Assembly: GCA_051294375.1 (NCBI GenBank)
Contig: CM119266.1
Span: 6,217,431-6,281,430, forward strand
Length of the DNA stretch: 64,000 nucleotides
Direction of reading: 5' to 3'
Source: Paraspadella gotoi
Taxonomy: Eukaryota > Animalia > Chaetognatha
A model generated the notes under the pieces. It was not told the origin of the DNA, ran no database searches, and saw only the letters and a list, made by a program, of their open reading frames with translations. The translations under genes were made by a program, and so were the position numbers. The number at the start of each line of letters is the position of its first letter. The stretch's first letter is position 1. Below, in pieces: positions 20,401-59,921 of the stretch.

Positions 20401-23400
20401 GACTGGATAGTGCTCAGCACTTCTGACTTCAGGTCGGGATCTATACTGGTGTCTGCAAGACGCCTATTGAAGACCAGGGAGTGACACTGGCCCGCGCGGC
20501 TTAGTCGCAGAAATGGGTTCGGGCAGGCGCAAAAGAGACAGGACTGGACGCCAAGGAAGTCGGATGTGAATCAGGCAGGAGGAGACGCTGAAAGCGAATG
20601 GGCGAGTGTTAGGCGAAGTTCCGATTCTCGGTAGGGAACCGCATCGAGCGAACGAATAGTAAGCCCAGAGGAGAGGACTGGTGACAGACGAGGGCGGATG
20701 AATGAACATTCGTTTCGGTACAGAGGGAGCCTAGTTATATTTCTATGTTCGGGAGTTGATGTGTTTTCAGGGGTTAATCGGTACGAGCCAGGGAGGTCCG
20801 GCCTGTCGTCTTCCAGTTATGATACCATATTAGCCAGTACGTTTCGCTGTCCCGTGTACGTCTTCGTCGATTCCGTCTCTGGGCGGGCGAGTGTCGAGGC
20901 TGTAGACCGGAGGCTGATGTTTTAGGTTAGAAGGACGAATAATTTTGCGTGGAGGTGGATCACTATCGAAGTCGGAATATTTTTAGTCACGTTTGCGCGG
21001 GCGCGTCTGAGACGCCGTTAGGCGCGTTATGTGTTGATGACTAGGAAGGCGCTGGCCGCATGCTCCGACGCGTCTTGGGAGATGCTTAAGCTGCCAGACG
21101 ACCACCGGCTAAGAGTTTTTTATCGTTGCCGAGGCGTTGCCGGTGGGTTGTGTTCGTGTTGTTCGGTGCGGCCGGTTGCGGCGGTGATGCGGGGCCGAGG
21201 AATTCCTGCCTGTGGCGGACGACGCGCGTTTTGGGGCGAAGGAAGGCGCAGTAGGTTCCCGGCGGCGGGGTGGAGGCTCGCGAATCTTGCGCAGATTCTC
21301 TTCCTCGTCGCTTCCGGTGGCGGCCGGTGACGTTCGGGGAAGTCGTCTTCTCGAATGTCCAGGTCGGAGTGCTGCTGCTGTCCGCTGTCGGGGCGCCGTG
21401 GCGCGAGGAGGCGACTCCGGTAGTGGTGCTGCGTTCGCGGGGGGCGCGGCGTGGTGGATTGCCGGCGCGGTCGGGCTGGTGGGGGCCGGGTGGGCGTGCC
21501 GGGAGACGGGGTGGCGGCGGGACGCCGGGGGTGGCGGGCGGGTGGTGCTGGGGGCGGGGCGGCGGGTGGCGGGCGGGGGATGGGGGAGTGGGAGGCGGTG
21601 GCCGTGTGCCCAGACGTGCGGGGCGGGAGGCGGGGCCGCTCGTTGTGGGGGCGGCGGTGGAGGTGCGCGGGTGGTGCGGTCGGCGGGGCGGTGCGACGCG
21701 GGGCGCGGCGGGCACGGGGCCGGGGCCGGGTGGCGGAGGTGGGCCGGCGGGTGGGGCGTGCGGTGGGGCGGTGTTGGGGCGGGGCGCCGGGTGGCCCCCT
21801 CGGTCGAGTGAGCGTGACATTATATAACAATGTAATTTTTTTTTATTATAATTAATTTAATAATTAAAAAATCTTCATCTTATAAATTTTTTTTTATTTA
21901 TTATAACACATACAATTATTCTTATTAATTTTAATATTTTTAATATTCTTTTATCTTTTTAGTTTTATTCATTTATTTTATAAATTCCATTTTCAATTAA
22001 TAACAAAACATTTATTAGCAAACTCATCAAATATATATAATTTTAATTTTCTTTCTTACTTTTTTCTCTTAATGCGCATATATTAACCAAAATATGATTC
22101 TTTTCTCATATAAAAATTTCCCCAAACCATCTTTATCTACACTAAAAATAAGTTTTCCTTTATATATCTAATAAAATATTTTCTAATTCTCTTAAAATAA
22201 CTAAAACCCATTTACAGATTTTAATATCTTAATATACCACTTTTTCATACATTCTATTATAAATCAAATATAAATTTATCTAAATCCACTTTCACCAATC
22301 ATAATCATCTTTACACTTCCTTTCTAAATTCGTTTTAACTTAATTAATAGCGCGAACAAAAGAGATAGCCTAGAAGATGTCTTTCAATTATGTCAAATCT
22401 TCTATAACTTATTTCATTTTCGTATTTCATTAACATATAAGTAACAAAAGATCGAAACGTTTTTGGTAGAAAGTTTATGATAAATCCTGTATTTTCCCTT
22501 TGCTTGTAAATATAAAATTATATTTATTTCTTAACATTTTTTTTTGTTTTTTCGATACATATCCTTACATATTGTGAATTCATCTCCACCCAAAATATAT
22601 ATACATGCTATATATATTCTCTTCTCCTTCATACTTGTCAATTTTTGCATCTAATATTCAATTTCTTCCCAAAATTTAATTTAATTCATCTCACATTCCA
22701 CTCATGTTAATTTACGTTCAAATATTTAAATATATTTTTTTTTTTTTTTTCATTTAAACCTCCATTTCCACTCCGTACTGATTCCATTTGAACTTTATTT
22801 CCTATCTCAACACAACCACTTTTCCTACCCACACATCAAATTTAATCCAATCCATACCATCCCAAATTACGTAATTATATTTTACTTTTTTTTTTTCTAA
22901 TTTTATTAACTTTACATACGTACAGACATTTTACATTTATTGACAGTACATTACTGTAGCTTTAATTCAATTTTTTTCATAATTTATCATAAAAAATTTT
23001 GAACATTTTTGTTTGCAGTCAAACTAAATTTAATTTATTAACAAAAATTTCAAAACTTTTTTTTTCTTTATATCTCTAAACATCAACTGTAAAATAAATT
23101 AAAATACAATTTCTACTATAATTTATCATAATTTCTATGTTCTTTTCATTTATAGTAATTTTAATTCCCTACAATATTTTCTTACCAGTCTTACCTTCAC
23201 AGATTTAATTATATATCCGTTAATCTTCTTTTAATGCAAAAGTCCTGTGTGAATTTATAATTTACTAAAATTCTTTTGACCTTTATTGCAGTGGCATCTT
23301 CATACTTTCAATCTTAAAACATTATGAAAATGAGATTTTATTAACGAAACAAGGAACAAACAGTTAGCTAAACTGGATAATAACAATCACTTTTCCTTGG

Positions 23401-33151: not shown

Positions 33152-34189
33152 CGGTGAAGGGTGAAAAGGTCCCTAAGTATTTTTTTCGAACGTGAAAAGG
33201 AATTTCGCCTCACAAGGAATTCCGAGATAAGGAGATGGCAAAATAGAGAACGACGGTTGGAATGCCAGTCAGAAAAGGATCGGTGCCAGTCGCTGTAAAC
33301 GGGGCGATTATTGGACAAACGATGAATTTCACGCTTTTTCGTTTTATTGACTCGTCTCACTGAGAGTCGACAAACACGATAACAAACAAACGTGATGTAC
33401 AATTTGTTCATCACAAAATAGAATCACGTGAACTTTCTAAAGTTTTCCAGATTATTAATTTCCTTGGACGGAATGGAAGGGCATATCTTTATGAAATACT
33501 ATTTCGACATGATAAAATTGAACGCTAGCATTTTGAAGCCAATAAAAAGTTATGGGACCATCGAAAATAAAACTATCAACCAGTCTATGTAAATAACTCG
33601 AAAGTTAAAGACAAAGTTATCTAGCTACCTCGGAAAATTATTTTAATATAAAAAAAGACTCGTTTTGAAAACCAGTTTTGGCCGGCTCCATCCCTTCCTA
33701 CTCTCCCCTTAAACCCTGGAGTCAGGTTCAGCCGCAAAAACAAACCGTCTTGAGACGTTTTAGCGAAAGTCGTCGTCGTCGTCGTTATCAACAACTAAAC
33801 CGGTTTGTCAACCGCTTTACAAGAGTCGCACCGGTTTAATTGCCTCGGGAAGTAAGTTTTCTGTTTAGAAATTTTGCTCGATTGCAGACTTGCGGAATTT
33901 TTTGGTTTTTTCTTTGATCGAAAGTATTATTTTTTTTGTCTTTTTACTCTTTTTAACGTGGCTTGCCTCTGAACGCAACTGGGCCCGCATAACGGCATCT
34001 TTGATCGTATATATTTTTTTCGATCGGTCGTCACGCCCTTTTTTTCTCTACATCCTCATGTCTCTGATCGCACTTCGGCCTCTTCGCCAGCTTCTCTGAT
34101 CGCACCTTTGCCATCTCACCGTCGTCTTTGATCGAACTTCTTAATCGATCCGTCGCCACGCCCACTTTTCTTCTTCCTCTTTCTCCACC

Positions 34190-37100
34190 ATGGCTTACAT
34201 GCAAAAGGTCTTTGGTTTCGTCCGCGACGACGAGAGCTTCGAGACACTCCGCCCGTGGTGGGAAGTCGTCCTTTCCTTCTCCATCGACATCATGGTCTTG
34301 GCTTCCGTGACCTCGGTGACTTCTGACCTCTTCCAAGGAGCCGGTTCACTCATATGCATCCCGTCCAACAAGACGGAAGGCTCCGCTTGGGACAAGCAAC
34401 AGTTCGTCGAGCAAGAGTGCACGGAACTGTGGCCGCTTTATGCCAAGTACTTTCCTTACTTTCTCGTGCTGCAATGCATTCCGTTTATGGCCATCAGCAA
34501 GGCGTGGAAGAGGATCTGCGGGGATCAGTTGAAGCTGTTCAACAAGCTCGCCGAAGAGTGCCGGGCTTCGCCGATCACGAAGCTGAGGGTCGACAACTTT
34601 TTAAGGTTTCAGGTGAGAGAGGGATAACCGGGGAAGGGAGACAAATCTCAATCGATCTTTAAGTAATAACAATGAATCTTACGAGTTATCTTGTAGTTTG
34701 AATTTATTTACTATGCAATAGTATGCAATTGTACTATGCATAGTATGCATTAAGTTTAATTAAATCAAGTTACCTTAAATTCAAGAATTTTTGATGGTTA
34801 GAAATCTAATGCAGCAAAAAAGATTCTTAAATGCGTGATAGGTCGTTAACATTTTTTTAACTTATCATTCATCGAGTTTTGTTATTAATTAATTTTTAAT
34901 ATCTAATTGAGTACAATTAATAATCATATCCAGTCTCGAAGAATGGCCAACGCGGGACGAAAAGACGTTTGGCCCAAAGGCGACTCGAACCACAACGACG
35001 ACAAGACNNNNNNNNNNAACGCCGACGCCCAGATGGACGACATGGAAGGCGCAACCGCCGAAGAGTTCGTCTGCCTTCAGCTCGACGCCGACGACGCTCG
35101 AAACGCCATCTCTCTTTACGATCGAATCAGGGAATTAGAGGCAACGCTCGATCTTTACAGCAGGTGGCGCGGGAGGGAAGGGGGAAGGGGTTCGAGGGGG
35201 AAAGGGGGACAGATGCATGATATTTTTCACGGAGGACAGATGCAGGCTAAGAAATAGGAAATCAGGCCCTGCCTGGCCTGGACTGGCAGGAGCCAAAAAA
35301 AGATAGGACAAAGGTGGTCTAATTATGATATCAACATCATCCAAGTAAATCAAGTTTGTCTATTCAATTAAATCAAGGATTGTCTTTAAATGAATGATAA
35401 AAATTTTTTACAAAATCCTCCAGACAAAAAAAAAAGTTTTCTCTCCTCTGCTCTCCCCCTCAGCTCCTGCGCCACCTACTTTCGGAAGTGTGTCGTCAGC
35501 GTAGCCTTCGGCGCCATCGTCGTCGGTTGGGGCGCTAAACAAATCGCCATCCGCGACTTTGACTTTTACTTTCCTTGTTCTCTCGATCGGCTGCATCACG
35601 CCCACATTCTAGACATCTTCGACTACACCTGCGTGAACAAGACGACCACCATGAGCGCGATGCTACAGGTGAGAACTATTGCTGCGGGGTCAGGTTGTGC
35701 TGCATGCTGCAGGTAAGGAAATAGCGCTAGGCTGCAGGTGAGGAGGAGGAGCGAATCTAGGACCACCTTGAATGCGGCAAAGGCAAAAATAATAAGCGCC
35801 ACCTCATTCTTTTAAAATAGAACACTTATTGTAAATAAAAATTAAGTGATGGTGAATGAAGTCATATCATTAAAATACTTTTTCAGATAGCTATCGCTGT
35901 AATCATTATCCTTCCACTTCACTTTTCCCTTCCAGTATCTGTTCCTAGTCGTCGTCTCCGTCCACATCCTCATGCAAATCTGGGGATTCCTCCACTGCCT
36001 CGCGGCTTCGGCTCCCAAGCGGCCCGTCGCCGCCCCTCGATCCGCCGACATCCCTTTGCTGCCCACGAAGGCGGAACGAGCGGCGATGGAAGAGGGTGCC
36101 GCCGAGGACCAATTCGACGCTTGCGAGACTCTCGTGTCGCCGGATGACGTACCGGCGTCTTACCCTTGGTGGCGCCAGTTGGGGCACGTCGTCGTCATGG
36201 ACAAAAACGGCGCCAACGATTCGAGGTTCCTGCAGCAACTTCTCCGCAACTCGGACAAGGATGCGATGTTGAAGTTCGAGGCGTTCGGAGAGCGGAGGTA
36301 TCGCGATCGGTTGGAGGATGTGGCGACGTGCATCCAGTGGCCTTACGCCAAGTTGAAGGAAGAGATGAATAAGGCGGCGGCGGAGGATCAGGTGAGTGGC
36401 CAGGCCGGCAAAAACAAAATAGCGCTTCAAAGAATCTCAAGGAAAAATAGGAAAAAAATTAAGAGAAACTGAAATATACTAATTGAAATTACTGAAATAA
36501 TTCGAATTATCGAAATACAATCAAGTAATCAACGAATAAACGTAGGTGTGGCTTATTCTATGACTCTCTTACAGACCAACTTCGAGCACACCCTCTCCCT
36601 GGCGGACGTCAATCTGCTCACCCTTCCCCGAGGTCTGGTCAAGCTGCCCGCGGCCAACTGCATCCTCGTCGAACTGGACGTCTCCTTCAACGAGAATCTC
36701 GTGGATCTGGATAGGGGTGTGCTCGAGTGGCTTGCCAAAGGTCTCACCACCTTCAAGTGTCGACAGTCGGGACTCATCGACGTCGGTCCCATCGCCGAGA
36801 CGCTCGTCAATCTCACGTGAGAGACTGAAGGATATTTTAAGATATTAACCTAACTTTTAAGATTTTAACGATCAAATATTCATGTTTTATGTTTCAAAAA
36901 CGCAATTAGTAGTATCCAGTGAAGTAAAATTCAAGTAAAGATGATCGATTTGGTAGTACACTATATCGTTAACGAGATTTACAAAGGGTAAGAGTAATTT
37001 ATTTTTTCTCTTTTCGAAATGAAATTGGAAATCCTAATTCGAAGCGATCATGTTTTTGAGTATTCAAGCTGCAACCTCGTCCCCCCAAAAAAGGAAACAA

Positions 37101-37659
37101 AATTATTTTCTCCTTCGCTCATGAATAAAACTGTAGCGACGACCCGAAATGACCTCGTTCAATGTTTTTATCAATTCCCCTTTCTCTTTCTCCTCTCCCT
37201 AAATTTCTTTAACCCCCTTATATAAACTAAATGTTCTCTTTACCTTGTTTTGACATTAGACTGTAGTACTGAATGAACCATGGTTAATTCGAAATAAAAC
37301 GCATACTTAAGCCCCTCAACTCCCCCCCCTTCTTTCCTAAAATTCCCCACTCATTTTCTCACCTCACCCTTCCCCCCCCCATCCCCCCTAACCTCAGATA
37401 CCTCGACGTCTCCTTCAATAAGATCGAGACCCTCCCCGCCTCGATGGAAAACCTGCAGCGCCTGCGGTCTCTCACGCTTCTCAGCAACCCCTTGCGACGC
37501 CGCGAGACGAAGGCGGCCCTGAGGGCGTCGGTGCTGCCGCTGCCGCATCTCAAGGAGCTCGTGGTGGAGGCGCGTTTCCTCGAGGAGGAAGAGGAAGAGG
37601 ATTTGAAGTTCATCGCTTCGGAGTTGGCGCCGAATTTGTTCAATAGGAGGAAGTTGTGA
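34190..37659 (+). CDS. LRRC8: LRRC8 (VRAC/SWELL)-like channel subunit: pannexin-like 4-TM domain plus short LRR domain, ~605 aa, 6 exons
   Basis: Kozak ccaccATGG. Exons 34190-34612, 34934-35163, 35464-35668, 35936-36391, 36575-36816, 37398-37659, all GT-AG, phases 0,2,0,0,2. Matches to recalled LRRC8A motifs: TLRPWWEV~ILKPWWDV; LICIP~MICLP; YAKYFPYFLVLQ~FAKYFPYLVLLH; ECRASP~KCFDSP; LDADDARNAISLYDRI~LDKKEGEQAKALFEKV; NDSRFL~NDFAFM; QWPYAKL~EWTLDKL. LRRs include LVELDVSFN, LTYLDVSFNKIETLP and LRSLTLLSNPL. A 10-N gap in exon 2 makes the exact length uncertain. Confidence 0.88.
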
Positions 37660-38533
37660 ATGAAGAGATGAGGGAATGAATGAATGAATAACTGGTTAAA
37701 TGAATGGCAATGTGTGAATGGTTTGATTAAATAAAAAGAGGTGAAGGGTGAAGCAGATAAAATTGTAAAACATTCAATATTCATGGAGGTTTATTCCTTT
37801 AAATTTAAAAAAAAGCTATCACTTGTCCAGAACTAATTAAACTCATTCGAATCAAATAGACTTTCACTTTCGAAACGACACGAAAATTCGAGTCGATTTT
37901 CTATTCTGATGGTGAATCAAAACAACTATTACTTTCGCAAACGTAGTGATCAACTTAGGGAATACTTAATTTTATAAGTTTATCTTATCCCCTTTTTTTT
38001 TCCTTTAATTTTTCTCGATAAACAAATGGCAAAAAAGAAAAAAAAAGCCATTTTCTCCCATCCGAGCTTGGTAAACAAACTCGAAGTTCGACGAATAAAC
38101 ATCAAAATGTCAAAAGTCAAAAACGTCAAATGCCAAAAAATTAATTTCAAAGTCGATGATTGTTTGGAAATCGCAGATTCCCTCTACAGTCGCCAATCGA
38201 AATAATAAAAGCGAGATGAAAGCAGAAGCAAAACGTAATTAAAAACTGAAAAAAAAAAACCCGCTTTCTCGCGAAAGGAAAGTTGATATAAATAAACTCG
38301 AACTTAACAAAAAACTTTTGTAAAAAAGGGAAAGTTGTGTTGGCGTCGTCATGCGAGGACGTTTCTATTTTGATCGTAAGGCTTTTGGGAATGATTGGGA
38401 TGCCAAGTCGTATCATGGATTATTATATAATCATACGTTGTACGCACTATATTGTCATAAACAGCCGGTTTTTAAGTTTTTTGTTTTGCTTTTAAACAAG
38501 GAATGCGATTTGTTATAATTTTCTTTCTTTTGT

Positions 38534-40117: not shown

Positions 40118-42635
40118 GCTGCTGAAAGATCCGGACGAAAACGAAGAAGAAAAGAATTCGTCTTCGTCGAAGAGAAGATTTTCCAAACGACGACCGACGG
40201 GATCCTGAAAATGATCTTAGATCTTAGATCATCTTTCATCTTGATCCATTTAAACTTTTGACCTTGGATCGAACAAGAATGATGCTAAGATTTTCGCATA
40301 GTGGACACTTTATAAAGTTTTACTCTGAGAAAACTAAGCCCATGCCATCTTTAAAGTCGTTCACCCGATCTTACTTCATCTAATCGTTTCTAGAGAATTT
40401 ACTTGCCTAATGTCGTTGAGCATCTGCATACCTCACTACCAATATCATTCCCTCGCCCCCCACAGTCACACACCCAAACCTGTTGATGCGGCGCCGGCGA
40501 CATCGGCAGTGTTCGTCGACGCCGTTCTTTTCTTCGCTCGTGTCGATCAAGTTCGTCGCTGCGGCTCCGTTGACCGAGGCGGCGGGGGCTGGCGCTGCGG
40601 CTGCTTGTCGTTATTCCTTTTTCCGAGAGTTTGGATTCCAATTCTTTGATCTTCGCCTTCAGCTCTTGATTTTCCTTCTCGTATTCCGCCACCTGAGGGA
40701 AAAAAAAATTCAAGTAAATTTTTGACATTAATTGACTTAGCTGTTTATCGCTTATTTCCATATTTGTTTTGTTACAATTACAGTAGAGAATTAAAGAATT
40801 AAATTAAAGAATTAAATAAGAATGAAACCAAAAAAATGTTTCAATTTATTGGAGGAACTTTTGAAACATGGTCCAGTTGGGGGCCTCCTACAGATCCAGT
40901 TCTCCAACCTGCCATTTATCAGTTGCCTCACCCACATATCAGTACGTCCATTATTGATCAAAAAGTAAGATTTTTATCGATCAATGGCCCTTATCAACCA
41001 ACTCCATCCCTCCGACCTGCGTTTTCAGCTTGACCATCTCGTCCTTGATGCTGGAGGGTCGGCCCTGTTGCTCCACGAACTGATTGTAGGCGATCTCGAA
41101 GGCCTGTCCGACGGTGAGGGTGATCTCTTCCGCGCATTTCTCGCTGTCGAACACGAAGCAAACGTGTTGCTTCGTCGTTTCCTCCTGAGGTCGATAACAA
41201 GCATAGTGAAGAGACAGTAATAGTTGTTATGTGTTAGTGACAAAACCGTTCAATATAAGCTGTCCCTGAGCTTCGGATCAGGCTGTAACACCGTGTTACA
41301 GGCGGGTTAAGCCCCCGTCCCTCTAGCGACCACCGGGCTCGAACCCCGGACCTTTAGAGGCGAATGACTTGCCTCCTGCACCAATGGCCGCTGATGGTGG
41401 ATTTTAGTTATATAGTTAATTTAAGCATTATAATTACGGATCATGTTCACATGAGTAAAGTCAACAACTTAATTCTTGAAAACTTACTACTTTAAATTTA
41501 AAACCTTGGCTTCATTTCCCGATCTATTTTTTTAGTGAGATATTGGGATTAATATCAACAATAATGTTGAGGAGAATTGATACTTAATACCGTTCGCGTT
41601 CAATCCGATTTCACATCCAAAAATAAATGAAAAATAAACAAAATAATACTACATAAATTATAAATGAATACTTTGGCAATAAAGGCGAACATTCGTTTGT
41701 CGGTTTTGTCGTCAGCGCAGAAGGAAATCCGATGAAGAGGATAAGAGTGATCCACGATCTGAGAAGAGAGGATATAAAAGTTTATAACGAATTAATTAAG
41801 AGATTCGATATAATAATCTCCGTGATAGGCAAGTCACTCGGTGTGATTTTACAAATCCTACAATAAATTTCGAAGAAATAAAAAAAACTTGGAGATGCGG
41901 GGGATTGAACCCCGGACTTCTCACATGCGAAGCGAGCGCTCTACCACTGAGCTACATCCCCTACCGACGAAATGGCTCACTTTGTACTTGGGGTCTTGAA
42001 TGGTGACAGAATCGACGGAGATGACGAGTTCTTTCTTCGCGGTTTTGATTCCTTCCGCTTTTTTCACGCTTTTGTTAAACTTCATTTTCTGAATCGCGCC
42101 GCGGACGACGTCGATGCCTTTCGGGTCGTCGACGTTGACGAAACCGAGGAACTGGTGGATGAAAAACGAGAGAACTTAACTCGGAGTGGGACTGTTCTTT
42201 TATTTTTAATTCGGGTTATTTCGCTTTATTCTTAAGTAACGTGGAAATTTTGAGTTGAAATTATAATTAGTTATTTACAGTGTAGTTTGTGCTACATTTA
42301 TTTTTTTTTTCAGTCGTAAGCTATCATTAAAAACTAATAATAAATGACAATTCTTCAGGTAAATTAAGACTGTAAAATCCCGACACGAAATAATTCCACC
42401 TCTTCCTCCTTACCTTGACAACGTAGGTGACCTTCCCTTTGTGCAGCGCCTCTGCCGGGTGAGGCCATTTCTTAAACTCCCCGTCAACGTTCATCCCATG
42501 AGCGCCGCTTTTCTCGTCGCGGCGCCACTTGAGAAAACTCGGACTACGGAATTTGCTGGCGCCGGACGAGCTGGCGGCGCCGTTAACGGTTACGCCGTCC
42601 GCGGCGCCGGCGCCGGCTTTGCCGTAGGACGACAT
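38534..42635 (-). CDS. GULP1: PTB-domain engulfment adaptor CED-6/GULP1, ~511 aa, 8 coding exons
   Basis: Exons 42635-42414, 42151-41981, 41758-41672, 41184-41017, 40692-40480, 40204-39686, 38758-38677, 38607-38534, phase-consistent GT-AG. Motifs [41 protein letters not shown] and [25 protein letters not shown], then a leucine-zipper/coiled coil ([15 protein letters not shown]). The last two exons are less certain. Confidence 0.92.
41325..41392 (-). mobile_element. tRNA-derived SINE-like head / tRNA pseudogene in a GULP1 intron
   Basis: Minus strand AGCGGCCATTGGTGCAGGAGGCAAGTCATTCGCCTCTAAAGGTCCGGGGTTCGAGCCCGGTGGTCGCT: A-box-like TGGTGCAGGAGG, B-box GGTTCGAGCCC, paired ends AGCGGCCA/TGGTCGCT, but no proper anticodon arm. 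Confidence 0.55.
41890..41961 (-). tRNA. tRNA-Ala (anticodon CGC)
   Basis: Minus strand GGGGATGTAGCTCAGTGGTAGAGCGCTCGCTTCGCATGTGAGAAGTCCGGGGTTCAATCCCCCGCATCTCCA, 72 nt, canonical cloverleaf with the G3:U70 alanine identity pair, followed by an oligo-T Pol III terminator. Confidence 0.96.
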
Positions 42636-45600: not shown

Positions 45601-46538
45601 ATATTCTAATCCCTCAGTTTAATAAGGATGAATTAAAAAATGGGAAAAAAAATATACCTAAAATTTTTCTGTTACAGTTTTTTATCTAAACTTGCATGGA
45701 ATGTTTGACATGATTCCTTACAACCTGCAAAGAAAGAGGCATTTGCCATTTAGAACCAGATAGTACTAATTAATAATACATTTCTTAGAGGAGTGCACTG
45801 ACCAATAACCAGGAAGGTAAAGCTAATTATTACCATTTGAACTTCTCAAAACTGATTTATAAGAAGCACCGAGTATTTTAGTATCTGTTATATTATCAAG
45901 AGAATTATTCCTGGCCAAATTCATCAGCCGATGACAATAAGAAACGGGATTAGGTGCCCCAAACCACCAAGACGAAACCCACGCCGATTCATTGAGTAAA
46001 TGTGGAACGATGACGAAAAGGATGTGACTCGTCAAATCACGCATGAGTCAATCATTATTCACAACTATTAATAACTTTGAGGGAGTATAAATACAAGGGT
46101 TTCTTGAGATTTCTTCGAGCAACGTTTGTCTCGAAGGTACGTTCAGTTCAATATTGTCAACAAAAAAAAAAAGAAAAGCCGAGCAAACTTACATCTAGGC
46201 CCATTACAAAAAACTTCCGCCCCTTTCCGCTAAGGTCGGAGCGAGAATTTCTATTCTGATGATAAATCCCCCAAAATCTAGACTCGACACCGACGAAAGC
46301 TGACGAAAGGAAAAGTCTCTGAGAAGCCCGCGAAACCATTTCCGCGTCGACGACAGCACTAAAGGGGATTAGCGGAATATTTAAAAACGCGAACCCCCCC
46401 GTCCCCCCCCTTCGCTATCGAGAGAGAGACCGGAAGTTCCCGGTGCATAAACTCACTCGATCTCCACATAAAGAAAAAAGTCTGGGATTCGCTAGACTTT
46501 CTCTCTTTTAGTATTTCGGTCGGCGAAATAACAGACAA

Positions 46539-49500
46539 ATGTACGTGCTCGCGACGTTGGCCTTCGTCGCCATGGCGACCGCCACGCCTGCCAACAGACC
46601 GTCGGACAACATGATCGAACTTGACTTCCTTTGCCAGGAAGACGGACTCTTCGCCAGTCCCAAGTATTGCAATCTCTTTTGGATCTGCTTATACACGGAC
46701 TCGGTGCAACCGATTCAAATTCCTTACGTTTGCGGGGCCGGCTACGCAAATCCGAGGTATGGCACTTGCGACTGGGAAGAGCACGTCAACTGTAACGGAG
46801 AGATGGCGCCGGTCCCGGTCCCGGTGCCGCCGACAACGCCGCCGCCGCCGGTCACCACGCCAGGTTTTGATTGGAGAGAGAAAGAAAAAGAGATAGAAAA
46901 GAAAAAAATTGGGAAACTTAGGTTTAAAAATTGACGTGACAAACCACTAAGATCGACCAAATTTTATTGCAGGTTTGACATCTTTTGTTAAAATTAATAT
47001 ATTTAATTTTTGCAGTCAATTTTTGAACCAAAGACAACATACAAACAATTAAAATTTGGAAAAAGAAACGGAATTACGTAAAAGAAGTTTTAACAATTTA
47101 AAAAAAAAGAATATGCTACATCACCGGCAGAGCCGAAACCTTTCTCTTTTCCTAACCCCCTTTGTTTGAAGGCAACGTGCTTACTACGAGAAGCAACTCT
47201 AACCCCTCTGTTTCCACGCACAATTCTAACCCTGTCACAACAGGACCTGTCACCCCCATCAGCACAAAACCCACTACTACAGGTGGGAAGAAAAAAAACG
47301 CGCCAAGGTTGAATCACCAGTTAGTAGCAAGTTAATCTGACAGAGGATCACTGGCCAGCGACTTCCCTTTCTGTTTTATGAAATTGCTATTAATTGATTC
47401 ACTCGTGATCCATCTCGGCGTCTACCATGGTTTTGGGGTTTTTTTTTTCTCGTTTTTCCACCTCGCCCTCAAATTTAACGCGACTAAAATGTCTCTCTAC
47501 CAGTGCCAACACAACCCCCCACAAACCCTCCCGTCGGCGGCACGCGTTTTCGCCGGGTCTGCTACTACACCAACTGGGCGCAGTACCGCCGCACCCCTGA
47601 AGGAAAGTTCTACCCGGAGGACGTGGACCCGTTCCTCTGCACCCACGTGATCTATGCCTTCGCCAATCTGGTCGAGCGCAAGTTGAAGGCCTTCGAGTGG
47701 AACGACGACTCGGAGCAATGGGCCAAGGGCATGTACGAGCGGATGATGGAGAACAAAAAGAAGAACCCCGCCCTGAAGATCCTCCTCGCCGTCGGCGGGT
47801 GGACCATGAGCTCACCGCCCTTTGTCAAAACGGTGGCGACGCAACAGTCTCGGGACACCTTCATCCAGGACGCCATCCAGTTTCTCCGAGAAAGAGACTT
47901 TGACGGGCTCGATCTGGATTGGGAGTACCCAGGAAATAGGGGCTCGCCTTCGGACGATAAGCATAGGTTCACACTATTCATGCAGGAATTGCAGGTACAA
48001 GTACCAGTACAATTGCTCATGCTCAAGATAAATGACAAATTGAAAATTGAAAAATTTTCATAATTACTGTGCTAAAGCAAAAAAAAGGTTTTTTTGCTTT
48101 AGCCCAGAAAATCCCACTATGAAATTTTTTCAAAAAATAATTATACTCCCTGTGCTTGTGATGACGTTTAAAGAACATAGTAAATATGTTTTTAAATATA
48201 ATGATAGAACTTTAATACTAAAATCCCTCATTTAGGCAGCTTTTGCAGCTGAGGCGGCCTCCAGCGGTAAAGACCGCCTTCTGCTGACGGCGGCGGTGGC
48301 GGCGGGTGAGTGGACCGTTGAAAAGGCTTACGAAGTGAGTGAAGTTTGCGCCGCTTCCGACTTCATCAACCTCATGTCTTACGATCTTCACGGATCTTGG
48401 GAGTCCTTCACCGGCCACAACTCGCCCCTCTACACGGAGACGGGCGGCAATAAAAAGCTAAGTGTCGACTATGCAGTCAACATGTGGCTCGATCTCGGGT
48501 GCCCCAAGGAAAAGCTGGTCATGGGCATGGGCACCTACGGCAGGACTTTCACCCTGGTCAACCCATCCAAGACGGGTCTGAATGCTGACGCCTCGGGCCC
48601 TGGCGCCGCAGGGCCTTCTACCTCGGCCAAGGGGTTTTTGTCTTACTACGAGATTTGCAAATTTATCAATAATGAAGGATGGCAATCGGAATTTATAGAT
48701 GAGATTAAGAGTCCCATCGCTTACAAAGGTGAGGTGGGAAGAAGAGATTTAAGAAATATCGAACCACAAAACATCGGTAATCTATTTTCGGTGTAATATT
48801 TGTGCTTATTTAAAAGACAGATTTAAGAATTTAGAATTAAAATTGAAATTGAACAAAATGGGTAGAAACACTTTTCTTTTCAGGCAACCAATGGGTTGGT
48901 TACGATAACCCAAGAAGCATCGAGATCAAGTGCAACTACATCAGACAAAAGGAACTGGGAGGCGGCATGATCTGGGCCCTTGACCTCGACGATTTTACGG
49001 GTGAAGTGACTTAATGTTCAATGTCCATAGCACAGACTTCTTAAGTTACGTGAGAAATTGAGAAACGTCCTCTTGGGAAATGATGACAACAGGAAAAGGA
49101 TGCAATGGCGAAAAATATCCCCTCCTCAAAACAATCAATAAAGTTCTGGGCAGCGAGACTTGGGTCCCACCGACAGACGGCCCGATTCCGACCAACAACC
49201 CGGGTCCAACCGACAAGCCTTCGACCTCCAAGCCGCCGCCAACATGGAATCCGACGACGCCCAGACCAACATATAAGCCGTGGTCAACCACCACAACGGC
49301 AGGAAAGGCTAACTAATGGTTACTATATTTGTTAAAATCTGAGTAGTTAAATGAAAATTATTTAAATTCATAATCGGGTAAAATTTTACTTTCGTTGGTG
49401 GTGTTTTGGTGTTTTGGCTTTTTTAAAAGACTATTTAAAAATATTTTTATTTTAAATTTAAAAAATTATTATTTAATTACCCTAACCCTTAACCCCCCTT

Positions 49501-53031: not shown

Positions 53032-56000
53032 TCAAAGAACTGGGGTGTAGAAGGAGCTCTCGTTGGGAATACGTTGCTCCAGTATCATTCTCGAGTCGTT
53101 GACCGCGTGCTCCTTGACCAAGTGTTTCAATATAGTCTTGCTCATGGCGGCGATGGAATTGCAGAGGGCGCACTTGAAGGGACGTACCTTCATGTGGGTA
53201 TAGATGTGGGCGACGATGCTCTCCTTGCTGTTGTAGACGGCCTGACACTGGTTACACTTGAAGCGAGAGAGGACGGTTGCCACGGCGTTGACTGACGCCG
53301 AAGAGGCCGTCTGCTGCTGCGGAAGCGGAGGGGAAGGCGCAGCCACCGCGGCTGCGGTCGACGTCGAGCCGGAAAGCTGCGGCTGAGCCTTTTGTTGCGT
53401 ATCGACGCCGTTAAGAGAGACTTGGCCGGTGGTCAGGATGGGAATGGTCCCTGACGGCGCCATGCGGATGGAGGAGGGCAGCGAGGTCGCCGCCGCCGCT
53501 TGATTGACGACTGGTGCGAGGAGAAGCGGAGGAGTTGGCGGGTTCGCAGCGCCGGACTTGGCCGCCGTGGCGCCGGGGAGGAAGTTCTGCGGCGTGGGTT
53601 GGATGGCGACGATCTGCGACAGAGCGGGAATCGCCCCTCGAGGTAGGATTTGCGCCGGGTTGACAATCGTTTGGGCGACAGGCGCCGCGGGCGGGGGCGA
53701 CGTCAGCGTCCGGCGTTCGGCCTCGACCGACGAAGCGGTCGCCTGACGAAACGATGGAATCGGGAAGCAGTTTCGATGAAGCATCATGGTGGAGTCGAGC
53801 TGCCGCAACTGGATGATCTGGTCCTTGACCTTGTCACCGGCTCGAGGCACTCCGAAAGTAATGAAGCGAATTCCCTCGTCCGTCACGCGAACTTTGACGG
53901 GCATCAACATCTCGAACTCGCCAGGGAACGTCGCCACTTCCACAGGCGACACGTTAAGAGACGTTTGCTTCGACGCTAGAGGCGCTGGGGGCGGCGTGGC
54001 CGGCGGCGGGGCCGGCGGCGGGGCCGGCGGCGGGGCCATCATTACGACCGGAGTAGAAGCGACGCTTCGATCCGGCGTCGAAGCGACGGGAGGCGGCGCC
54101 GAATTTTCCGAGCAAGATGTGAGTTCGGGAATGTCGGGTTTGATGTCGACCTCCATCTCCGTCGCGGAATCCATCTCCGATTCGGAAGGCTTCGTCGGCC
54201 ACGCCTTCGATTTTGACGTCGTAGTCGTGGGTCCGTTGACTTCTTCCCTTTGCTTCTCTCGTTCGATCGGAAATTTCCCGTTTTGTCGCTTGGCGGCGGA
54301 TTTCTCCTTCTCCGCCGCCAACGCCGCCCTTTCCGCCTCCGACTTGGCGGACCACTTGTCAAAATCCTTTTCGCTCAACTCAGGCAGGGTGAGGTGTCGA
54401 CTGTAGACGACCATGCACTCTTTGGACCCAAGTTGGGGTCCGTGAATTCTCTCCCAATGTTCCAACTGCATGGTTATGTTCTGCGACTGAAAGCCGCAAA
54501 GGCCGCAGGCGTAGCGTTTGAAGCCGCAATGGTGTTCCTCCATGTGCCGGATGATGATCTTGCTCTGCGGCTGCACCGCGCAGCACCTGCTGCACTGATA
54601 CTGCGGTTTTCCGTTGTTCCTCTTGGGATCGACGACGCGACGGAAGCCGCCCTTGGCGAGATTCAACGACTCCTTCTCGCTGTGGGTGACGATGACCTCG
54701 AACCGCTTCTGCCAATGAGGCTCCTTTTGACCCTCGCTCATGGGCTTGTCCCACACCATGGCCGCGGCTGAGAGGTTGTGGGCGATTCTGACGGAAAATT
54801 GGGGGGGGGGGAAATAGGATTATGGGTATGAGTGGAAAACGAGGGGAACAAGGAGAAAATCTCCTCAAAAACTAACTTGAAGTGGTCAGTTATTTCTCTG
54901 ATGGAATCCGCCTTTCCGTCGCAAGATTCCAAACAGCAGGAGAGCGTGAAATGCTGGAAGGATGTGGAGTAAATCCCCACGTGACCTCCTCCGCCGCCGC
55001 TGGATTTTGAGCTGGAGTTGTTCCTCGACTTCTTCGTCGAGTTGACGTCTTTTTTCGAGTCGGAGACGTCGATGTCTGTCTCTGTGTCTTTCGAGCTGAA
55101 GAAAGGAATTTTAGATACTTACTAATTTAATCGTAAGAACGATTGGAGAAACAAAAAACGAGTGCGTACTGCGTAGTATTACTCCCGGGTTTTTAAAAAG
55201 TCCTCCCTTTTCACTTCAATGAAAACGTCACAGAAAACCATGAGGCATAAGTCGTTTAGTCTCATTGATTGTCAATTCATAAGGAAAAGCAAAATCCAAT
55301 AAAAATAAGGAATGCCCTTGGTAGGTAACTCAGAACCTTTTTCTTCAACTTTTAATCTTTATAATTTATCTTACTTAGGAGTCTACGTCGTTCTTAGAAA
55401 TCGAGGAAGACTTTTTCAATTGAGATTTTCGTTAAAATCTGACTACCAAATAATGTCAACGCTCCTGGGAAAAATTCAGGTAAAAAATAGATGTAAAAAC
55501 ACTCGATCCTGTTGCATCTGAAGGGCTCGCATTTTTTTTCTCTTGACAAATAACCATCATTTTGACATCAAACCATCAGATTCAAATGGACTGGTCCGCT
55601 CGGGAAAATATTTTTGACGCAATTTTTATATATAAAATAAAGGGATTTCTCAACTTCAATACAATGTCAACGCATTTAACATATGTTGTGATTTTACAAT
55701 AAACTTCAAATTCAGGAATCCGATAGCCATATGTCTGAAGGGCTCTCAAAATTTTTCTTTACATTTTATTTGGTTATTTTGATATGATACGATCATGGGA
55801 AAGTGAATTTGTCCATTTTGGTGAAATTTTTATTTAAAGTAAAAGTAAAAGAGGAGCTAACGATCGGAATTCTAAGAGTTTTCAACCGGGAGTCAGATTC
55901 GGGGAAAATCTTCTATGGCGAAAATCTTCCAAAGAAGGGGTCAATTTTCCGAAGATTTTGGTTAATATTTTCTATATTTATGGTAGGATTTTTTTGAAAC

Positions 56001-57413: not shown

Positions 57414-59921
<2,508 letters not shown>

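Follow-up and report, generated by a model that had tools for sequence, protein, structure and literature searches.

A compact LRRC8-family gene with six leucine-rich repeats in the chaetognath Paraspadella gotoi

A window of 64,000 nucleotides (nt) from Paraspadella gotoi (contig CM119266.1), within which all gene coordinates below are counted, contains a compact gene that we assign on sequence grounds to the LRRC8 family, outside the vertebrate members LRRC8A-E. The gene occupies 34190-37659 of the forward strand, where six GC-rich exons join into an open frame of 605 codons that links a membrane-spanning pore half to a cytosolic leucine-rich repeat (LRR) domain of six repeats. Exon 1 (34190-34612, residues 1-141), delimited by the frame, its match to PF12534 and alignments, encodes the N-terminus (K6), transmembrane helix (TM) 1, a short extracellular loop 1 (C56, the sequon N60, W67, C77), TM2 and the start of the intracellular loop (I129). 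The remaining exons were placed by the frame together with the transcript and, for exons 2-4, alignments (a profile alignment for exon 2). Exon 2 (34934-35163) carries the intracellular loop between TM2 and TM3 and, as seen from the window letters and the transcript, encloses an assembly gap of 10 N at 35008-35017. Exon 3 (35464-35668) contributes TM3, extracellular loop 2 (C256, C274) and the first part of TM4. Exon 4 (35936-36391) completes TM4 and continues with an insertion of low complexity, the post-TM4 cytosolic helices (L412) and, at the entry to the LRR domain, the helix bearing W421. Repeat analysis, joined by Pfam for exon 6, assigned LRR1-3 plus the opening residue of LRR4 to exon 5 (36575-36816), and LRR4-6, the C-terminal cap and the stop codon to exon 6 (37398-37659). 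Hydropathy analysis of the protein found the peaks of TM1, TM3 and TM4, and missed TM2 at a threshold of 1.3.

All five introns follow the GT..AG rule, and a contig of 2,781 nt from run X1, spanning 33847-38258, joins all five exon junctions, as expected from the six-exon structure proposed in the initial annotation. Transcript support comes from this single contig of a single run; its RNA nature is the guess of the tool, a guess supported by its spliced form. Runs X2 and X3 contain next to none of the gene. The contig differs from the window in three letters and carries 21 additional letters, in frame, at the 10-N gap; seven codons are therefore hidden in the assembly, and the protein is about 612 residues long, not the 605 that were initially read correctly from the genomic frame. 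Upstream, the 5' untranslated region (UTR) reaches from 34189 back to the contig start at 33847, with an in-frame stop at 34142 ahead of the ATG, which lies in a strong Kozak context. This leader also includes an upstream open reading frame (uORF) of 13 codons (34058-34099, forward strand). A conserved repressive uORF has been described for human LRRC8B (PMC7530721). Downstream, the contig continues for about 600 nt beyond the stop codon as a 3' UTR (37660-38258) with AATAAA/ATTAAA hexamers at 37726, 37836, 38094, 38204 and 38238.

These data bear on whether the short LRR domain could be an artefact of missed exons, truncation, a pseudogene or a contaminant, which we regard as exceedingly improbable. 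Such an account could appeal to the one contig from one run and to the gap inside exon 2. It is opposed by the continuation of the contig past the stop into its 3' UTR, and by a convergent PTB-domain gene (PF00640, 38274-42175, reverse strand), which lies tail to tail with the LRRC8-like gene and which we take to be GULP/CED-6-like. The transcript of this neighbour extends to 38274, only 16 nt from the end of the LRRC8-like contig, so additional exons could be accommodated only by overlap, and it was also recovered in X1. The GC-rich exons and AT-rich introns resemble those of the neighbouring genes, and 13 relatives (about 24-37% identical where measured) stop after the same six repeats. A search for LRR patterns in introns 4-5 and on the forward strand from the stop to 46000 gave two matches, each interrupted by a stop, and no stop-free match; the additional LRR exons that could have undone the initial claim thus appeared neither there nor in the one transcript seen. 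A pseudogene and missed exons were rejected in view of the spliced transcript with its 3' UTR, the convergent gene and the conserved relatives.

The family assignment was already apparent from exon 1, which matched the LRRC8 pannexin-like TM region (PF12534) with an E-value of 2.5e-14, scoring 53.5 bits where the cut-off is 25. Exons 2, 3 and 5 matched no Pfam family, exon 4 only a chance family (E 0.18), and exon 6 matched LRR_4 and LRR_8 solely below their cut-offs. All 26 of the Protein Data Bank (PDB) sequences matched by exon 1 at E-values up to 1 were LRRC8. To these matches we added a pore profile, A2, of eight rows, in which the pore-encoding part of the window exons was combined with the pore halves of five relatives. 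It detected 26 LRRC8 chains at E-values of 8e-41 to 2e-33, compared with 0.07 for the best pannexin-1, and its match extended from the N-terminus through the post-TM4 helices to LRRC8A residue 420. Alignment to LRRC8D with hhalign continued from the post-TM4 helices into the pre-repeat helix with a probability of 99%. Scores were similar for LRRC8A, C and D, suggesting that the short-LRR protein may be equally distant from the vertebrate paralogues. Among the relatives, PF12534 was matched by P0001 (60.9 bits), P0007 (104.7), P0010 (71.5) and P0015 (76.6), and no match was obtained in P0009 or in the N-terminally incomplete P0022, P0158 and P0095.

Structural comparison pointed the same way, with models made for two relatives, P0001 (whole) and P0006 (LRR domain), rather than for the window protein. 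The AlphaFold2 model of P0001 (643 residues; mean predicted local distance difference test, pLDDT, 75) contained four TM helices, and its pore matched LRRC8A with Z 24.0 and a root-mean-square deviation (rmsd) of 2.4 Å over 291 residues, compared with Z 16.2 and 5.8 Å for the best pannexin, pannexin-3. In a Foldseek search with the same model, LRRC8 filled all top rows listed. When innexin-bearing clusters were left out, the ESM Atlas placed whole P0010 nearest to the LRRC8A-E clusters (0.97). Together, the profile and the predicted fold identify the pore half as LRRC8 and not pannexin, which bears out the membership first suggested from motifs.

Innexins were considered as well. None of the six window exons matched PF00876, and P0001 and P0010 reached 17.6 and 15.7 bits against a cut-off of 25. 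An innexin with a chance LRR tail was rejected, as pore sequence and fold are far closer to LRRC8 and the PF00876 scores fall below the cut-off. A related proposal, that the protein docks between cells as a gap-junction-like channel, draws on the ancestry shared with innexins, on the weak Innexin match of P0001 (E 0.0023, below the cut-off) and on the suggestion that some animals use junction proteins yet to be recognized (PMC6391747). We consider it very improbable, given the loop 1 N-glycosylation sequon N60, which occurs in three of the six complete proteins (the window protein, P0001 and P0009). Glycans on extracellular loops hinder docking in pannexins. As a separate observation, an ESM Atlas cluster of 84 members (498-residue representative, commonest phylum Chordata) bore PF00876 in 36% and PF12534 in 23% of members, and it is possible that this cluster is a pannexin-LRRC8 intermediate.

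To place the gene among its relatives, we searched representatives with HMMER, using whole P0001 as query, and examined the best 150 rows. These comprised 23 members of the short-LRR group, one fish LRRC8D and 126 matches to the repeats only; with so many LRR-only rows, long invertebrate LRRC8s may sit below those listed. Five different relatives appear to be full-length (643, 624, 547, 564 and 567 residues, on contigs of 1,954-2,653 nt). The relatives came from Logan, ENA, JGI and merc, the last of which, the source of one relative, we take to be a marine plankton transcript catalogue. Thirteen relatives include a C-terminal part; in each, the conserved Trp is followed by 170-278 residues that carry the same six repeats. 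Pairwise identity among complete members is 21-45%, and the window protein is 21% identical to fish LRRC8D.

A tree of 19 rows, from which shorter fragments and near-copies were left out and in which LRRC8D served as the single outgroup, resolved five supported subgroups. The window protein grouped with P0039, P0179 and P0180 (100/99), and this subgroup, which has divergent repeats 2-3 and insertions, adjoined those of P0001 and P0009. The branch that carries LRRC8D is long and attaches where the branching order is unresolved. The shared repeats and the supported subgroups indicate a conserved six-repeat lineage rather than one odd gene, in keeping with the lineage proposed at the outset. Among gene fragments of the P0001 subgroup, similarity is lost at residue 50 in P0053, P0057, P0089, P0129 and P0169, and resumes after an insert in P0169, which suggests an intron at residue 50 in that subgroup without a counterpart in the window gene. 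Word-indexed protein searches returned no named LRRC8 relative (1 of 181, 5 of 7,996 and 11 of 7,996 candidates, the second set being the query itself and four LRR-only matches); because they likewise missed vertebrate LRRC8, they carry little weight on absence in other invertebrates. Two scans of JGI contigs gave 208 and 332 pattern matches, none of which was confirmed.

The LRR domain itself is strongly reduced. After the conserved Trp of the pre-repeat helix, the window protein has 184 residues, compared with 401 in fish LRRC8D, and its six repeat cores lie at about residues 442, 469, 495, 518, 541 and 570; six LRR strands were also present in both the P0001 and P0006 models. Vertebrate LRRC8 proteins are described as having 15-17 LRRs (PMC9399500). 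The initial annotation had allowed about 170 residues with four to six LRR-like units, and the count lies at the top of its range.

Its description of a strongly shortened domain also stands, with the qualification that the shortening seems internal and not a C-terminal cut. The opening helix of the LRR domain is continuous in sequence with LRRC8 (profile A2, hhalign). At the other end, the best match of the P0006 model (pLDDT 85) was to residues 651-805 of LRRC8A (Z 18.8, rmsd 2.5 Å, 151 residues, 28% identity), and the top eight rows were LRRC8, all in the same C-terminal register; the best other LRR protein reached 17.1, so this register rests on a small margin of Z 1.7. Foldseek ranked LRRC8C first for the same model, with LRRC8 in six of the top seven rows. 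By sequence, the short repeats gave no clear assignment to the 16 repeats of LRRC8D (best matches 11, 9, 8, 12, 13 and 13), and the cap matched at E 0.1. An N-terminal profile aligned collinearly with LRRC8D repeats 1-3 at 10 bits, but with repeats 8-10 at 19 bits, and with an LRR profile alone other LRR proteins outranked LRRC8. Because the opening helix is continuous with LRRC8 and the C-terminal fold falls in the 651-805 register, it is likely, on these models, that both ends of the domain were kept and about ten middle repeats are absent.

We then placed functional sites on LRRC8A through profile A2 and the family alignments. The cysteines C56, C77, C256 and C274 correspond to LRRC8A C54, C113, C295 and C310 and are kept in all six complete short proteins. 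The C57/C65 pair, which forms a disulfide in LRRC8A, and most of the long extracellular loop 1 are gone. The position of R103, the outer constriction of LRRC8A (PMC9130832), is Trp67 in the window protein, is Arg in none of the complete short proteins, and is Phe in LRRC8D. The position of Glu6, which is conserved in all human LRRC8 isoforms and shapes selectivity (PMC6120214), is Lys in five of the six complete short proteins (K6 of the window protein and four of five relatives) and Ser in P0009. L402, described as a gating hotspot with W168 as its partner (PMC13586329), corresponds to L412, and all 13 short sequences examined at this position have Leu. The W168 position (I129) is instead occupied by I, V, A or C in all seven short sequences compared. 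In LRRC8A, W168L raised both the constitutive and the swelling currents of heteromers (PMC13586329).

Given this combination of features, we lean towards a subunit of an anion and osmolyte channel gated by swelling or ionic strength, with a weaker LRR clamp and its selectivity charge at the N-terminus. The four-TM protein with its six-repeat cytosolic domain, probably together with sister subunits, would form a large-pore channel that opens on cell swelling or at low ionic strength and releases chloride and organic osmolytes; the five tree-supported subgroups offer candidate heteromer partners. If vertebrate channels are a guide, the pore would be ringed by six or seven subunits, and the small LRR domain would still pull on the intracellular subdomain via the conserved L402 equivalent. 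Fewer contacts between neighbouring LRR domains, together with Ile in place of W168, may hold the closed state more weakly and ease opening. The preference for anions would come from K6 at the N-terminus, since the outer R103 ring is replaced by Trp, much as it is by Phe in the osmolyte-passing LRRC8D. This reading is supported by homology that reaches past the post-TM4 helices into the pre-repeat helix, and by the invariant coupling Leu. It also agrees with the description of LRR domains as stabilizing the closed state, and of their loosening or removal as activating vertebrate channels (PMC13586329).

Several observations weigh against it. The modelled P0001 is just 37% identical to the window protein, the ESM Atlas placed the P0007 pore half alone closest to pannexin/innexin clusters (0.91), and the five subgroups may not occur together in one species. 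Deletion of the LRRs from LRRC8A is also reported to trap the protein in the cell or lower currents (PMC9399500), so the notion that a shorter domain means a more open channel may be wrong. W168L homomers carried no current (PMC13586329). Heteromers of the E6K/E6K type gave no measurable current (PMC6120214), and Lys at this position therefore counts against a simple copy of VRAC (volume-regulated anion channel).

The altered pore would also suit a large-pore channel gated not by swelling but by voltage, a ligand or an LRR-bound protein, and releasing ATP or transmitters as pannexins do, with the repeats serving as a docking site and not as a volume sensor. The low identity to LRRC8D, the changes at E6 and R103, a four-cysteine pattern without the additional pair of LRRC8A and the Atlas placement of the pore half among pannexin clusters would all be compatible with such a role, as would the statement that invertebrate cells rely on other volume-sensitive anion channels (PMC5064130). 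We nevertheless judge it unlikely: the subdomain that couples the LRRs to the gate is conserved, including the L402-equivalent Leu in every sequence checked, and sequence and fold are much nearer to LRRC8 than to pannexin. Still less likely, in our estimate, is an accessory or intracellular subunit of the endoplasmic reticulum (ER) or lysosome, non-conducting alone or at the surface, that tunes channels of the sister classes. Vertebrate LRRC8B-E require LRRC8A for surface delivery (PMC9399500), LRRC8B is reported to act in the ER as a calcium-leak channel (PMC7530721), and the divergent repeats 2-3 and insertions of the window subgroup could reflect such specialization. This alternative is partly compatible with a swelling-gated channel, in which the protein would likewise be one subunit of a heteromer.

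Elsewhere in the window, an Rfam scan identified one tRNA (41890-41961, reverse strand) and nothing else; it overlaps the end of an open reading frame (ORF) of the PTB-domain gene (41924-42175). Exons of a GH18 chitinase (PF00704) lie within 46512-49332 on the forward strand, with a cysteine-rich, chitin-binding-like ORF upstream (46512-46931). A 595-codon ORF at 53035-54819 (reverse strand) has C2H2 zinc fingers at both ends, matched below the cut-off. The NMT gene starts at 59921 on the reverse strand, and its nearest entries were NMT1/NMT2, presumably human (E 6e-61), with other solved NMTs at 1.7e-37 or weaker, which marks the host as an animal. A PIG-F-like gene, labelled by eye (61393-60197, reverse strand), lies in the same orientation and leaves 275 nt between its end and the NMT start, a spacing that resembles an operon; chaetognaths are reported to have operons (PMC2481426). 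The published chaetognath spliced-leader pattern (PMC2481426) had no match in the window, as expected unless the leader gene lay there. The region 21000-21900 has about 78% GC, few recognizable genes around it and no Rfam match.

LRRC8 genes are described as having arisen with chordates (PMC5064130, PMC9399500). No short-LRR or protostome LRRC8, and no clade of that kind into which the gene would fall, was described in the full-text literature searched, a scope that excludes subscription papers and other invertebrate annotations. Three supplementary text files of the chaetognath genome paper contained no match for LRRC8, PF12534, Pannexin, LRC8 or volume-regulated, and its further files may bear on the point. 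The six-repeat architecture is thus apparently undescribed so far. Chaetognath gene duplicates are reported to be enriched for ion transport genes (PMC12460157). More tentatively, LRRC8 might predate chordates, and arrow worms might have their own multi-subunit LRRC8 system, of about five classes whose diversification was separate from that of vertebrate A-E, each volume-gated and combining the six-repeat domain with a re-charged pore. In that case the compact domain could be ancestral, with later internal expansion in chordates, or could prove the ten middle repeats dispensable for gating.

If the host is a protostome, the chordate-origin account (PMC5064130, PMC9399500) would have to be revised, and the LRRC8-like genes of cnidarians need not be horizontal transfers. 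How motion of the LRR domain opens VRAC was called unresolved in a 2026 paper (PMC13586329). Artificial LRR truncations are hard to interpret, with intracellular trapping and channel opening both among their reported effects; a natural, folded six-repeat domain would supply ready constructs for determining which repeats and contacts gating requires. The family also offers substitutions at three studied sites (E6, R103 and W168) with L402 kept.

Compared with known channels, the protein shares with LRRC8 (PDB 7XZH, 8DR8, 6M04) the PF12534 pore, the four TM helices, the four extracellular cysteines, the N-terminal length before W23, the intracellular subdomain with the L402 equivalent and the pre-repeat helix, and the end of its LRR domain matches LRRC8A residues 651-808 best. 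It differs from vertebrate LRRC8 in length (about 612 residues, against about 800-870), in repeat number (six, against 15-17) and in a likely non-chordate host, and its identity to fish LRRC8D is low, as given above. Relative to LRRC8A, 20 residues rather than 58 separate the loop 1 cysteines, C57/C65 are missing, K, W and I replace E6, R103 and W168, and an insertion follows TM4. The LRRC8-like genes of Nematostella vectensis (Abascal and Zardoya 2012, as cited in PMC9399500), for which horizontal transfer is considered possible, likewise lie outside chordates. Pannexins and innexins (PF00876; PDB 6WBF, 8GYT) share the four-TM large-pore fold and the four-cysteine pattern (Z about 16), whereas their sequence match is far weaker (E 0.07 or worse) and they have no LRR domain. 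A disease variant of LRRC8C that is cut off at the LRR boundary, and is described as constitutively active (PMC13586329), resembles the window protein in having a smaller LRR domain on an intact pore. In that variant, however, the whole domain is lost pathologically, whereas here a six-repeat domain with its cap is predicted to fold and is conserved across the family.

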